A stretch of 63,457 nucleotides of DNA from Candidatus Omnitrophota bacterium (GCA_018819285.1 JAHJQM010000023.1:1-63457), one strand, 5' to 3'; shown: positions 7,332-14,606, counted from the stretch's first letter. A program made the numbers and translations. The notes: generated by a model from the letters alone, not told the origin.

Positions 7332-8528
7332 ATGCCTTTAAAAATCGCATTATATTATCCTTATATCCATTTAAGAAGCGGTGTCGAGCGTACGATACTT
7401 GAAGTCTTGAAGCGCTCCAGACATGACTGGCATGTGTTTACTAATCTTTATGAAAAAGATACCACCTACCCAGAATTTGAGAATTTTAAATCCAGGATAA
7501 CGGAATTGAAAAAGATCTCCGTAGAGAGAAGTTATTTTAATACCTTAAGATCAGCATGGATTATCTTTAATCAGGAACTTCCTCTCGAAGGGTTTGATGT
7601 TTTATGCGTGCATAACGAAGGCCTGGGAAGCCTGATAAATTTCAAAAATAAGGATATAACTAAAATTTGCATCTGCTATACCCCATTAAAGGTTATATAT
7701 GACGCTGTCTTGAGGAGAGACTATATTTCTAAAAATTTACATAAGGCCATATTTTATTTTCCAGTTTATTTTTTATTCAAAGTAATAGATAAAAAGGCGT
7801 TTAAATTATATGCCCTGTGTTTTTGTATCAGCAAGGAAGTCAGGGGTAGGATTCTAAAAAATAACCTTCTGCCTGATTATAAATTAAAGGTTTTGAACCT
7901 TGGAGTTGACACAATGTATTTTTCAGGAAACACTGGATATGGGAATTATTTCTTCCACCCAACGCGTATAAAATGGTGGAAGAATATAGAATTATCTATA
8001 GAGGCGTTTAATATATTGCAGATGGAACACGAAGGATTACGTAATTTTAAACTTATAATAGCAGGAGAGCTGTATAAGACAAATAATAGTTATTATGAAA
8101 AATTAAAAAAGATGGCTGCTATGAATAAAAATATAATTATTACCATAAACCCTTCGGAAAAAGATATCCTGAATCTTTACAAAAATTGCCGTGCAGTTCT
8201 CTCAACTACCCTGAATGAAGACTTTGGCCTTACTGTGCTAGAGGGGTTTTCTTTTTCTAAGCCTGTTATTGCTATTAATAACGGTGGGCCAAAGGAGATT
8301 ATAAGAAATGGTATAACAGGATTTTTAAGTTCACCCGATGCAAGAGAATATGCATCTTATCTATGTAAGATAGCTATGGACGCGGAATTGCCAATGCAAA
8401 TGGGTAGTATAGGCAGGAAAGATGTAATAAAATATGACTGGAGCAATTTTATAAACTATATAGATGATTTTTTAGAAGACCTTGCGCTAAACAAAAGAAA
8501 AGGCATAGCCAGGAACCTTAAGTTGTAA
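7332..8528 (+). CDS. Glycosyltransferase family 4 (GT-B)
   Basis: SGVER N-terminal motif; NEDFGLTVLEG...PVIAINNGGPKE. Confidence 0.88.
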   Translation: MPLKIALYYPYIHLRSGVERTILEVLKRSRHDWHVFTNLYEKDTTYPEFENFKSRITELKKISVERSYFNTLRSAWIIFNQELPLEGFDVLCVHNEGLGSLINFKNKDITKICICYTPLKVIYDAVLRRDYISKNLHKAIFYFPVYFLFKVIDKKAFKLYALCFCISKEVRGRILKNNLLPDYKLKVLNLGVDTMYFSGNTGYGNYFFHPTRIKWWKNIELSIEAFNILQMEHEGLRNFKLIIAGELYKTNNSYYEKLKKMAAMNKNIIITINPSEKDILNLYKNCRAVLSTTLNEDFGLTVLEGFSFSKPVIAINNGGPKEIIRNGITGFLSSPDAREYASYLCKIAMDAELPMQMGSIGRKDVIKYDWSNFINYIDDFLEDLALNKRKGIARNLKL

Positions 8529-9613
8529 ATAGTAGATGATTTTCTTGAAGGGAATTTGATGGAATAAAAACGGCTGAATTCCTCTTCCGGTATGAATATA
8601 ATAAATTTTATAAATTCCCACAGATAGTCGTATAATAAAATACGTAAAAAGATATAGGCGCATTTTCTAAAAGAAGCGGATTCTATAAGTCTCATAACGC
8701 CTTTATCCTTAACCCTATTTATAAATAATTTTAATAAAGATGCTCTTAATATACCTGGGTAAAACATCCCTAACTCTTTTTTAGATACAGGATATCCAAA
8801 TATTATTTTAACAGAAGCCAGGGAGTAATAAACAATAGAGTTTAGCCTGTTTAATCTGCTGTATTTTGATATATACGTCCAATCTATTTTTTTATCGTAT
8901 TTTTCCATTATCTTATAGATATCATATATTGGTTTTAATGAGAATGGCTTATTAAATCTTCTTAAATGAAGCGTAAGCGAGAATATAGTATCTTCCGGAG
9001 AGAGGATATTTAAAAAAGCATTATCATGCTCAATTTTTTGCAGTCTATTCCATAGCTCAGGTAAAATAATTTTATTTGGCCTTGGAACTGCAAGATCCCA
9101 ATGCAGCTCTGCCATATAGGTGCTGAAAAAAGGCAGATGATGGTAATGGTCAGTATAATATTCTTCTGAAAAATTACCAAGAGCCGCTTTATAGCCAAGA
9201 CCTTGCATGAGCTGTTTAGCTTTTTCTAGATCGTTTTTCTTTATCAAAATATCTATATCAACCATAGGCCTGCTTAAGTCGCTTTGGAAAATGTCGAACA
9301 ATAAAGCCACACCTTTGATAGGGACCAAGGGTATGTCAGCTGTTTCAAATACATTCTGTATATCAATAAACTCTTTTTGCTTAAGCATATTATCTTTGAC
9401 TGTCATCATATAGTTGTTTTTTAGCTTAGCAAATGCAGGATAGCCAATTAATTCTTTGTATCTATCTGATGTTTTTATAGTTAAATAGGCAAGATTTGTA
9501 AGACTATGATATAGAGATTCTTTAAGGATTATCCCTAATTCAGCGTTATTTAAACTTGGAAGAGGAGAATTTTTATTCAATAAAAGACTGGATTTAGATA
9601 ATACATTAAACAT
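8456..9613 (-). CDS. Nucleotidyltransferase family protein (NTP_transf_5-like), divergent from the RiPP precursor
   Basis: IKGVAL...RPMVDIDILI and ELHW motifs. Confidence 0.8.
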   Translation of the reverse strand: MFNVLSKSSLLLNKNSPLPSLNNAELGIILKESLYHSLTNLAYLTIKTSDRYKELIGYPAFAKLKNNYMMTVKDNMLKQKEFIDIQNVFETADIPLVPIKGVALLFDIFQSDLSRPMVDIDILIKKNDLEKAKQLMQGLGYKAALGNFSEEYYTDHYHHLPFFSTYMAELHWDLAVPRPNKIILPELWNRLQKIEHDNAFLNILSPEDTIFSLTLHLRRFNKPFSLKPIYDIYKIMEKYDKKIDWTYISKYSRLNRLNSIVYYSLASVKIIFGYPVSKKELGMFYPGILRASLLKLFINRVKDKGVMRLIESASFRKCAYIFLRILLYDYLWEFIKFIIFIPEEEFSRFYSIKFPSRKSSTIYNLRFLAMPFLLFSARSSKKSSI

Positions 9614-9812
9614 GATTATATAATGAGCTTATTATAGATAGATTTGAAAAGCAAGCAAAAAATAACAAGAAAAAAGGCTTTGCAATTGTAATATTATATG
9701 GTATAATTTATACTATAAAGGTAAACGTTTTCTAAGTTTTTAAATCATGGCCATAGATACTGTAAAAATATTAATTTTATAATTTTTTCGAAAACTTTTA
9801 AAATGATAATGC

Positions 9813-12983: not shown

Positions 12984-14205
12984 CAAATATCCTCCAATAG
13001 AAGGCGGGGTATCGTCCGGGATATACTGGTTAGCCAGAGGATTGGGCGAATTAAATCATAAGGTGCACGTTGTTACTAATTGTATGGAGGTTGAAGAGGG
13101 TTACCGCGAGGAAATCTTAGAAGATGAGCCTGGCCAATTTGAACCAAAGAATGTAAAGGTGCATAGCACAACTCTCAATACGCCATTTTTTATTCCTTCA
13201 TACAATCCGTATCTCTCAAAGTTAGTCAATATAGCTATAGAGGTTATAAGAAAATACGACATAGACCTTATCTATTCAGAATATCTTATGCCTTATGGAG
13301 CGGCGGGTTTAATGGCAAAGTATATTACTAAAAAACCATTTATGGCCGCTCATGCTGGAAGCGATATAACTCGGTTATTTGATTCGCCGTCTTTAAAGTC
13401 GTTTTTTATAGAAATATTTAAAGGTGCTGATAAGATATCGACTACGCAGCTGAGCAGCCAGAAAATTTTAAGGAGATGTAAAATAAGCCGGGATAAATTT
13501 ATATTTGGGTTACGCAGATCCATAGACCTTAAAGCGTTTCACCCTGATGTTAAGCCATTAGGCATATCTTTATATTTAAGGAAAAACAAAAAAGAGAAAC
13601 TACCAGCGTTTTTATATTTAGGCAAAGTTTCAAAGCTTAAAAAATCCTTTAATTTTGTAGATGCGTGCAGTATTATAAAAAAAGAAGAATTTAGGCTGAT
13701 ATTTGTGGTGGGCAATAATGAAAGATCATTATTGCTAAGAAAGTATGTCCACTCAAAAGGATTAGGAGAGAAAGCTATATTTCTGCCTTTTCAAGCTCCA
13801 TGGAGAATGCCGGCTCTTATAAATTCAGCCACATGTGTTGTTTCTCCAGAAACCTCTGAAGAGCCTTATCTTCCAAAAAACACGCATTATCCTAAGATTG
13901 CCAGGGAGGCAATGGCATGCGGCAGGTGTGTTATTATCGGGAAAGGCGTGGCTGAAAAAGGGGTATACCGCATGCTGCAGGATGGCGTAAATAGCTATAT
14001 AGTCGATCCTGATAATACAAAGGGGTTTGCGCAAAGATTGCGTTCAATCGTAAAAAATCCTGATATAACAATAAAAATAGGCCAGGAGGCAAGGAGGTTT
14101 TCTGAAAAGACAGAGAATTTTAATGAAAGCATCCAGCAGTGGACCATGGCTTGCAAGGCGCTTTTATTAGAGCATTCTCTCAAGTCAGAAGGCAGATCGC
14201 CATGA
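12964..14205 (+). CDS. Glycosyltransferase family 4 (GT-B) in the RiPP operon
   Basis: MKICIISKYPPIEGG, HAGSDI, EAMACG; overlaps both neighbours. Confidence 0.85.
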   Translation: MKICIISKYPPIEGGVSSGIYWLARGLGELNHKVHVVTNCMEVEEGYREEILEDEPGQFEPKNVKVHSTTLNTPFFIPSYNPYLSKLVNIAIEVIRKYDIDLIYSEYLMPYGAAGLMAKYITKKPFMAAHAGSDITRLFDSPSLKSFFIEIFKGADKISTTQLSSQKILRRCKISRDKFIFGLRRSIDLKAFHPDVKPLGISLYLRKNKKEKLPAFLYLGKVSKLKKSFNFVDACSIIKKEEFRLIFVVGNNERSLLLRKYVHSKGLGEKAIFLPFQAPWRMPALINSATCVVSPETSEEPYLPKNTHYPKIAREAMACGRCVIIGKGVAEKGVYRMLQDGVNSYIVDPDNTKGFAQRLRSIVKNPDITIKIGQEARRFSEKTENFNESIQQWTMACKALLLEHSLKSEGRSP

Positions 14206-14606
14206 AAGATATTTTTCTTTTTGCAAGAGTTTCTTATCTATTTTTTATCCTGCCAGTCATAATACATATAAAACCTCTTCCTGAAATCCTTAAATCATGG
14301 ACGCCTTGCATGTCTCCTAAATTAAGAGAATGGGATATATTAAAGATAACAAAATATCTTGATTTATTTTTTAAGCTGCGAGCGCTATTTTTTAGCAGGC
14401 GAGGGACCTGTCTTAAAAGATCTCTGATTCTTTATAAATTTTTGAGGGAAAAAGGCATTGAAGTCAGGATTAATATAGGCGTAAAAGGCGACAATAAAAA
14501 GATATATGGCCATGCCTGGCTTACGCTAGATGATAAACCATACCTTGCGCAGCCGCAGATAAACGAAGATTTTAAGGTATGTTTTATTTTTCCTCCCCAT
14601 GATTGA
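14202..14606 (+). CDS. Lasso B2-type (transglutaminase-like) leader peptidase
   Basis: TCLKRSL, IGV and GHAWL motifs; ATGA overlap with the upstream gene (track start 14139). Confidence 0.88.
   Translation: MKDIFLFARVSYLFFILPVIIHIKPLPEILKSWTPCMSPKLREWDILKITKYLDLFFKLRALFFSRRGTCLKRSLILYKFLREKGIEVRINIGVKGDNKKIYGHAWLTLDDKPYLAQPQINEDFKVCFIFPPHD

Follow-up and report, generated by a model that had tools for sequence, protein, structure and literature searches.

Gene content of the locus

The contig C24 of Candidatus Omnitrophota bacterium (GCA_018819285.1 JAHJQM010000023.1:1-63457; 63,457 nucleotides, the whole stretch of DNA that was analysed and hereafter called the window) was found to contain a gene cluster encoding a small Cys-rich precursor peptide, two PqqD-family proteins, a radical S-adenosylmethionine (rSAM) enzyme with a SPASM domain, a P-loop protein of the HPrK/PEPCK fold, a GT4 glycosyltransferase, a lasso-B2-type protease, and a divergently transcribed NTP_transf_5 protein (Table 1). 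The host was a small groundwater-type bacterium with a genome of 1.56 Mb (94% complete), and the G+C content around the locus was about 37%. We judge the cluster to represent an uncharacterised family of peptides that are made on the ribosome and modified after translation (RiPPs). The family occurs mainly in the Omnitrophota and brings together two RiPP toolkits that are already known; it does not amount to a categorically new class.

Open reading frame (ORF) calling placed all nine genes at the positions and with the domains given in an earlier note on this DNA. The six genes from the first PqqD gene (PqqD1) to the B2 gene overlapped or nearly abutted each other, with overlaps of 32, 17, 20, and 4 bp and one gap of 8 bp. 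The precursor gene, the tightly packed PqqD-PqqD-rSAM/SPASM-kinase-GT4-B2 operon, and the divergent NTP_transf_5 gene described in that note were thus confirmed from the ORFs, the domains, and the overlaps. The true start of PqqD1 is likely the GTG codon at 10277 that follows AAGGGGG, which gives a protein of 98 amino acids (aa) as in a related locus designated L005. Similarly, the B2 gene likely starts from the ATG codon at 14202, with a 4-bp overlap with the stop of the GT4 gene. A terminator-like hairpin was looked for in the spacer between the precursor and the PqqD1 gene and was not found.

Table 1. Positions of the genes and promoter-like sites at the locus, counted from the first nucleotide of the window. 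Scores are given in bits against the model cut-off where available.
Feature	Position	Strand	Remarks
Flanking glycan genes: PMT_2, GT2, two Wzy_C (O-antigen-ligase-like), GT4	2130-8528		Pfam assignments
NTP_transf_5 nucleotidyltransferase-fold protein	8456-9613	-	Divergent from the precursor; PF14907 131.9 vs. 31.2, E 3.7e-38
Promoter-like site TTGACT-17-TATACT	9813-9841	+	Upstream of the precursor; consensus scan, consensus match only
Precursor, 50 aa	9868-10020	+	Basic leader with Y9-x-x-P12; tail rich in Cys and Ser (five Cys), ending in Ser
Second promoter-like site TTGATA-17-TATTTT	10141-10169	+	In the precursor-PqqD spacer; consensus scan
PqqD-family RiPP recognition element (RRE) 1	10277-10573	+	PF05402 66 vs. 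23.4, E 3e-18; ORF open from 10238
PqqD-family RRE 2	10542-10823	+	PF05402 64 vs. 23.4, E 2.4e-17
rSAM/SPASM enzyme	10832-11989	+	PF04055 73 bits; PF13186 31 bits
HPrK/PEPCK-fold P-loop protein, putative peptide Ser kinase	11973-12983	+	Profile match to 1ko7
GT4 glycosyltransferase	12964-14205	+	PF00534, PF13439; between the kinase and protease genes, overlapping both
Lasso-B2-type transglutaminase-like cysteine protease	14202-14606	+	NF033537 47.8 vs. 33; PF13471; ORF open from GTG 14139
GT2 glycosyltransferase	14645-15583	+	PF00535, E 5e-29

The precursor peptide and its family

The precursor gene contained an AAGGAGG ribosome-binding site (RBS), 6 nt upstream of the ATG codon. In the alignment of the window with L005, the promoter (one change, TTGACC), the RBS, and the leader-coding DNA were almost unchanged, and the Cys-rich tail was found to differ by substitutions and by an in-frame 9-bp insertion or deletion. 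The spacer on the 3' side of the precursor diverged between the two loci except for one kept block (alignment columns 504-560), which held the second promoter-like site.

The related loci were taken from a species-level genome collection, in which 448 pattern matches were found; 413 of them contained rSAM relatives, and 80 loci were kept. When these 80 loci were searched with a precursor profile built from eight ORFs, 15 of them were seen to hold an ORF of this kind. The precursor of L017 was absent from this profile pass and from the filter of at least four Cys in the last 25 residues; it was added by hand-reading of the gap, which raised the number to 16 loci. Precursor-like ORFs with the same leader were present beside the orthologous rSAM gene in 16/20 loci containing a PqqD and/or an HPrK-like gene, whereas YxxP-leader precursors were found in 0/60 related loci having neither gene. 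In L009, L057, L062, and L075, most of which are short contigs, the search gave no YxxP peptide. Where the precursor and the kinase gene were both present (13 loci), the precursor lay directly upstream of the kinase gene in eight. The earlier note had named a lack of similar precursors in homologous clusters as a ground for giving up its reading; similar precursors were present, and this distribution bears out its claim of a RiPP-type operon with a genuine precursor.

Among 19 aligned precursors, only the Y9 and P12 columns were invariant. The tails were widely different and contained Cys in every case, often in CxxC or CG repeats, and some members of the family carried a single Cys. The core of the window precursor terminated with ...CACGS. 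The YxxPx[hydrophobic] ([Y/W]xxP) element is bound by the lasso B1 proteins and by the RREs of the linear polyphosphorylated peptides (LPPs), according to the available parts of two reports (PMC10368454, PMC13381572). The precursor was single in this genome, whereas L056 contained five copies and L067 contained two. The database search with the precursor alignment found 36 further members, which were hypothetical or unnamed and of which none had a Pfam domain, and none of the NCBIfam precursor families gave a match with E of 10 or less when 10 precursors were compared with them. Judged by its sequence and distribution, the 50-aa ORF is a genuine RiPP precursor.

One subfamily, comprising the ORFs of L008 (6003-6167), L017 (about 5966-6130), and L018 (3423-3551) and the proteins P0131-P0155, was kept along its full length. 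After the YxxP leader it contained ...LDTPEATNYLAAIFVGTALAGC[ST]P[AV]KS: a hydrophobic stretch closes with L-A-G-C, which is like a lipobox, and only five residues and a C-terminal Ser come after it. The subfamily resembles a lipoprotein signal peptide that is followed by a very short mature peptide, and it might give a lipidated, phosphorylated mini-peptide.

The radical SAM/SPASM enzyme

The rSAM enzyme contained CNWSCKHC at residues 24-31 and eight further invariant Cys, including C261-x13-G-x4-C280 and C318-x2-C321-x5-C327, which would fit a full SPASM domain. The enzyme begins directly at the radical SAM core, without an N-terminal RRE, and its alignment with CteB begins at CteB residue 99, past the N-terminal part of CteB. 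Since this part is absent, the stand-alone PqqD proteins plausibly replace the fused RRE. By sequence, the best matches in the PDB were CteB (5wgg, E 5.6e-14) and SkfB (6efn, E 5.6e-11). The AlphaFold model (predicted local distance difference test, pLDDT, 87) had SkfB, CteB, PqqE, SuiB, and anSME as fold neighbours. The solved structures closest to the enzyme, whether in sequence or in fold, were thioether-forming peptide maturases, in support of the reading of the earlier note.

The best NCBIfam models for the enzyme were rSAM_ACGX (185.5 bits vs. cut-off 400), SbtM (147.7 vs. 350), and GeoRSP (142.5 vs. 400), all under the cut-off, and the named sacti- and ranthipeptide maturase models were lower (StsB 83, PapB 78). 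Beside these three models, the enzyme belongs to a large family of SPASM enzymes that are associated with Cys peptides. We know of no characterised member of the ACGX and GeoRSP rSAM families.

Other small ORFs were seen beside rSAM relatives. In the Candidate Phyla Radiation (CPR; Patescibacteria), ORFs of 80-110 aa accompanied the rSAM-GT4 pair in L025 (13781-14098), L034 (13716-14045), and L041 (1080-1322, minus strand). They contained an N-terminal hydrophobic segment, a common ASADVP/ASADIP motif, and a Cys/Gly/Ser-rich tail, and no PqqD or YxxP leader was detected in these three loci. ORFs ending in long CGGG or GGCGG repeats were found directly before distant rSAM relatives in L070 (9819-9953), L076 (9650-9952), and L084 (12-167), the hosts of which were Pseudomonadota, Verrucomicrobiota, and unclassified. 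In many CPR/DPANN loci (L019, L023, L026, L028, L032, L035, and L040), the rSAM gene was present within arrays of 4-9 more radical-SAM-like genes of about 300 aa, which were called from weak phmmer matches (E 1e-4 to 1e-20).

The recognition elements and the B2 protease

The profile of PqqD1 (13 sequences) matched the lasso protein TbiB1 best in the PDB (E 2.1e-17), as did the profile of the second PqqD protein, PqqD2 (E 4.6e-13). Both proteins appear to be lasso-B1-like, and PqqD1 scored 52 bits on the lasso_PqqD_Bac model, under the cut-off of 80. The predicted complex of PqqD1, PqqD2, and the precursor had a score of 0.32 and was not separated from the control with chain 1 replaced (0.30). 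A PqqD1-type gene was present directly upstream of the rSAM gene in L006, L010, L016, L021, and L027. Adjacent PqqD gene pairs together with B2 were found in the window, L005, and L007, whereas L015 and L056 contained two separate PqqD genes without B2.

The Cys of CL[KR]RSL and the His of GH[AS]WL were invariant in three homologues of B2, and the third catalytic residue was not placed with confidence. B2 had no match in the PDB by sequence. The match of both PqqD profiles to TbiB1 and the YxxP motif in the leader support the earlier note.

Two fused forms were also observed. In L009, a single ORF (4389-5213) contained two tandem PqqD domains and would thus be a double RRE in fused form; an ORF of 199 aa and then the kinase gene came after it. 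In L062, a Rhodospirillales contig, an ORF of 785 aa (2534-4891, minus strand) matched the HPrK-like and PqqD profiles, so that the RRE and the kinase are apparently fused.

The putative kinase, the nucleotidyltransferase, and the GT4 glycosyltransferase

HPrK and PEPCK share a P-loop fold. The P-loop protein had NCBIfam matches under the cut-off only (TIGR04352, HprK_rel_A, 36 bits vs. 200; ScmC 26 vs. 125), and alone it gave a weak PEPCK match in the PDB. In the alignment of 16 sequences, H159, S176, G179, K180, and T182 were invariant, and the profile of these sequences matched HPr kinase/phosphatase 1ko7 best (E 1.8e-6), over the H...GxSGxGK[ST]T...DD core. The best fold matches of the predicted model (pLDDT 74) were PEPCK (E 1e-8, template modelling score about 0.44), and no HPrK chain was among the fold matches listed. 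By its P-loop core and predicted HPrK/PEPCK fold, the protein would fall in the HPr kinase/phosphorylase superfamily. The HPrK-like label of the earlier note was thus supported by the 16-sequence profile and not by the NCBIfam models. The kinase was single-copy in this genome.

The NTP_transf_5 protein, which we take to be of the same family as LppN or PsmN, contained K100-G101, R115, and the D119-x-D121 metal motif, all of them invariant in 12/12 homologues from related loci. Orthologue-level matches to GT4 (E 1e-52 to 1e-115) were found beside the rSAM gene in L005, L010, and the CPR/DPANN loci L011, L025, L034, L038, L060, and L063. The family assignments expected in the earlier note held for PF05402, PF13186, PF14907, and PF13471/NF033537, whereas the ScmC and HprK_rel models remained under their cut-offs.

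Published HprK-like kinases phosphorylate Ser of RRE-bound precursors, as described in the available portions of the sources. The HprK-like kinase BsfK acts on Ser3 of its precursor, and B1 helps the kinase as well as B2 (PMC10368454). The HprK-like kinase LppK likewise phosphorylates Ser, with polyphosphorylation at Ser3, and the LPP NTP transferase, labelled "uncharacterized" there, was inactive in the heterologous host (PMC13381572). PsmN is described as needed for the hexose on the phosphate of pseudomycoidin.

Recurrence and distribution of the gene set

Partner genes in the 80 related loci were counted by iterated profile searches. PqqD was present in 19 loci, the kinase in 16, NTP_transf_5 in 12, the GT4 orthologue in about 11, and B2 in two (L005 and L007). 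The full arrangement was repeated in L005, where the rSAM enzyme was 89% identical, and parts of it were repeated in 19 further loci; the arrangement would therefore seem to be more than chance.

The rSAM tree was a quick maximum-likelihood tree of 72 rows with SH-aLRT support only. Nine loci were outside the tree: L014, L033, L052, L055, L067, L075, and L083 had no rSAM ORF at E <1e-55, and the best ORFs of L043 and L072 were shorter than 300 aa. The window was placed inside a group of 14 rows, all of which had an RRE/kinase context (14/14; SH-aLRT 87). The sister group contained eight CPR/DPANN rows (SH-aLRT 98), three of which had GT4 beside the rSAM gene. From the counts, the gene order, and the tree, the recurrent core is therefore the precursor, the PqqD-type RRE, the rSAM/SPASM enzyme, the HPrK-like kinase, and NTP_transf_5, whereas B2 with the second RRE is an add-on and GT4 accompanies the rSAM enzyme independently and more widely. 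The gene set of the earlier note holds as a unit for these five members and not for B2 and GT4.

Kinase homologues were found in 98/301 sampled genomes of the phylum, which represented 83/206 genera; the sampled genomes ranged from about 1.2 to 3.7 Mb.

Components of related pathways that were absent

No lasso cyclase was found in the window nor in the 94%-complete genome, which agrees with the earlier note. There were four PF00733 matches genome-wide, and the only full-length one was an Asn synthase on contig C50, present in an exopolysaccharide (EPS) context next to an EPS priming transferase. This enzyme was considered as a displaced lasso cyclase and was rejected, because it was of AsnB type (TIGR01536 500 bits vs. 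267; lasso cyclase model 226 vs. 525). A SipW-type signal peptidase had no genomic match over the cut-off; one TIGR02228 match under the threshold (27.9 bits vs. 51.85) was present on contig C67.

Comparison with known systems

The closest published system was the LPP family (Popov et al., Nat Commun 2026; PMC13381572), and the comparison follows the available part of that report. Both systems contained a stand-alone RRE, a kinase resembling HprK, an NTP transferase, and a precursor whose leader carries YxxPx[hydrophobic] and whose C-terminus varies, both were present in a glycosyltransferase-rich polysaccharide locus, and neither contained a macrolactam cyclase. RRE-assisted leader cleavage was shown for LPP (PMC13381572). 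The LPP clusters contained, as leader peptidase, a signal peptidase I of the archaeal type (SpI, SipW-like) and also an MsbA-like ABC exporter, whereas the window had neither, and only the YxxPx[hydrophobic] part of the LPP precursor motif YxxPxVLxHQxIxFETxxS was present in the window. The LPP family was described from Bacillota and the window is from Omnitrophota. The window further differed by its rSAM/SPASM enzyme, Cys-rich core, second RRE, GT4, and lasso-type B2, and the term "radical SAM" was absent from the main text of the LPP paper in a term search (PMC13381572).

The phosphorylated lasso clusters (paeninodin, pseudomycoidin, and Bsf), in the accessible descriptions, shared with the window the split B1/B2, the HprK-like kinase, the NTP transferase (PsmN), and the YxxPxL leader. 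The B2 leader peptidase was present with NF033537 over the cut-off, and a PqqD-type B1 was present together with the leader motif, with the lasso_PqqD NCBIfam models under the cut-off. In contrast to these clusters, the window contained an rSAM enzyme and had no lasso cyclase and, on the contig, no ABC exporter. Unlike lasso peptides, the core was Cys/Ser-rich and had no ring-forming Asp or Glu in register.

With an rSAM/SPASM maturase, RREs, and a Cys-containing core, the window would also fit the sacti- and ranthipeptides. It differed from CteB by the two stand-alone PqqD proteins in place of an N-terminal part, and the models of the CteB/SkfB type classes scored below ACGX, SbtM, and GeoRSP. 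HprK kinases are not reported for the known members of these classes.

Two NCBIfam-defined systems showed partial likeness. ACGX gave the best rSAM model, and the window core ends in ...CACGS; membership (TIGR04340) was rejected on the score of 185.5 bits vs. 400, and no precursor model was matched. SynChlorMet combines PqqD-like, HPrK-like, and rSAM/SPASM proteins, as do many related loci; membership was rejected on ScmC (26.4 vs. 125), ScmD (38.5 and 39.8 vs. 100), ScmE (91.8 vs. 400), and ScmF (82.2 vs. 400). Membership of HPr-rel-A was likewise rejected on score (36 bits vs. 200). To our knowledge, ACGX and the SynChlorMet cassette (ScmC/D/E/F) exist as bioinformatic family definitions only. 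The literature search found no SynChlorMet paper, and the papers listed for ACGX and for SbtM were unrelated. It also found no publication joining HprK kinases with SPASM, or HPr kinase and radical SAM with lasso/RiPP RREs, in line with the earlier note, which knew of no characterised product with this combination. Two metagenome surveys of biosynthetic gene clusters that mention Omnitrophota gave, in their available parts, phylum-level counts only.

The neighbouring genes

The cluster was surrounded by glycan genes. Upstream of it were GT4, two Wzy_C genes, GT2, PMT_2, and a B12-binding radical SAM gene, and B2 was followed by GT2 and then by rpsO and pnp. The Wzy_C membrane proteins were divergent and side by side (4687-5919 and 5973-7184, the latter on the minus strand). 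The B12-binding radical SAM protein (207-1640; PF02310 and PF04055) opened the upstream glycan locus and was adjoined by an ORF of 102 aa without a Pfam match (1808-2116); in L005, a weak radical-SAM-like match was present at the far left of the locus (78-2042). Wzy_C homologues adjoined the cluster again in L005, L006, L017, and L036, where homologues of the glycosyltransferases flanked it too. The downstream GT2 was present at the same position in L005, and a close homologue (E 4e-62) was found upstream of PqqD in L006. This GT2 may belong to the pathway or else to the glycan locus around it.

Proposed pathway and alternative explanations

We consider it probable, by analogy with the known relatives, that the operon encodes a working RiPP pathway, with the YxxP leader, held by the RRE, directing Cys modification by the rSAM enzyme, Ser phosphorylation by the kinase, sugar addition by NTP_transf_5 and GT4, and cleavage by B2. 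The 50-aa precursor would be made from its own promoter, and its basic YxxP leader would be held by the PqqD-type RREs. One RRE would present the Cys/Ser-rich tail to the rSAM/SPASM enzyme, which would act on the Cys, most likely by forming thioether bridges from the Cys sulfur to carbon as in sacti- and ranthipeptides. The HPrK-fold kinase would then phosphorylate Ser, possibly the C-terminal one, as the lasso and LPP relatives do. NTP_transf_5 and GT4, and perhaps GT2, would attach sugar, either on the phosphate or on Ser. The second RRE would act as the B1 partner of the B2 cysteine protease, by which the leader would be removed. The hybrid pathway of the earlier note is thus right in outline, and its crosslinking, phosphorylation, and glycosylation are suggested by family resemblance. 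Its "new RiPP class" was too strong, because the cyclase-less LPP family, with RRE, HprK, NTP transferase, and YxxP, was published in 2026 and the rSAM enzyme lies within a large SPASM family.

Several other observations weigh against this pathway or parts of it. The chemistry of the operon is assigned by analogy, and every system-specific NCBIfam model except that of B2 was under the cut-off. B2, present in 2/80 related loci and the window, was not a conserved member. The penultimate-Thr rule for B2 substrates did not hold at any obvious junction; the residue before ...S-C37 was K35 in the window precursor and T in L005. The C-terminal Ser was not present in all the aligned precursors. The GT4 gene accompanied the rSAM gene even in CPR/DPANN loci without RRE or kinase. 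None of the 29 genomic matches to PF00005 (ABC ATPase) was present on the contig of the window (63 kb), so that no dedicated ABC exporter was found there. The kinase homologue was absent from both (0/2) other genomes of the same genus, which indicates that the operon is dispensable; the operon is common but accessory.

The peptide could instead be a phosphoserine scaffold or primer for a cell-envelope glycoconjugate built by NTP_transf_5, GT4, GT2, Wzy_C, and PMT_2, and not a free secreted product. This explanation is unlikely; in its favour are the glycan genes around the operon, the GT4 gene embedded in it, and the absence of an exporter from the contig. The operon lies inside a locus with PMT_2, two GT2, two GT4, and two Wzy_C genes, this neighbourhood recurs in the four related loci named above, and the GT4 gene is translationally coupled within the operon. 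The LPP and paeninodin clusters are also present in capsular polysaccharide loci, and the final LPP product could not be identified, according to the available text (PMC13381572). However, the cores vary among the relatives, as is usual for bioactive peptides that diversify and not for a structural primer, many related loci had no glycan genes in the fetched stretch, and a glycan-gene neighbourhood may merely mark accessory-gene islands.

The choice between reactions of the rSAM enzyme bears on another explanation. Within the RiPP reading, thioether formation is our first choice, by a modest preference drawn from analogy, and a Cys-converting reaction is the second. In the latter case, the enzyme would convert the Cys themselves, for example to thiooxazole-type heterocycles or another Cys-derived group, and the product would be a metal-binding peptide; as an explanation of the whole locus we regard this as rather improbable. 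SbtM, a Cys-to-thiooxazole enzyme according to its NCBIfam name and no crosslinker, was the second-best rSAM model, above all the named sacti- and ranthipeptide maturases, which also counts against thioether formation. The cores contained CxxC or CG repeats with small flanking residues, the window and L010 precursors gave faint compositional matches to thiazolyl-peptide precursor models (that of L010 also to a heterocycloanthracin model), and Cys-derived thiooxazoles are described as copper ligands in bufferins, in the available part of the source. On the other side, the SbtM score was far under its cut-off, the nearest solved relatives of the enzyme form thioethers, and the single-Cys family members are a poor fit for a multidentate metal ligand.

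That there is no peptide pathway, the small ORF being a chance frame and the rSAM enzyme, the kinase-like protein, and the glycosyltransferases acting on a sugar or lipid of the polysaccharide locus, is hardly credible: the locus is rich in glycan genes, and rSAM-GT4 pairs occur in CPR/DPANN loci where neither PqqD nor a YxxP peptide was detected, but the leader is conserved and preceded by a strong RBS, the precursor co-occurs with RRE/kinase loci and not with the others, two RREs and a B2 leader peptidase are not known to act in anything but peptide maturation, and the CPR loci also carry Cys/Gly-rich small ORFs.

Implications of the proposed RiPP pathway

Returning to the RiPP pathway that we favour, if the inference holds, it would be the first to join an rSAM-modified Cys-rich core with the kinase/NTP-transferase module of the phosphorylated lasso peptides and LPPs. 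A more speculative form, which we regard as quite improbable, is that the peptide is stapled by the rSAM enzyme and then phosphorylated on Ser, and that the phosphoserine anchors a glycan from GT4, NTP_transf_5, GT2, Wzy_C, and PMT_2, giving a peptide-anchored phosphoglycan. If true, this would be a cell-surface or secreted glycoconjugate of an undescribed kind, and such glycoconjugates could be common in the ultra-small Omnitrophota and, with membrane-anchored Cys/Gly-rich precursors, in the CPR bacteria.

Since the hosts are uncultured and their genomes are small, the operon, which is compact (eight or nine genes) and has a defined precursor, lends itself to heterologous expression. The operon could reveal what the NTP_transf_5 step does, and the family offers natural variation for studying how a YxxP leader is shared among an rSAM enzyme, a kinase, and a protease through two RREs. 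From the kinase homologues in the sampled genomes and the 413 rSAM relatives, the family is widespread, not rare, in this uncultured phylum.

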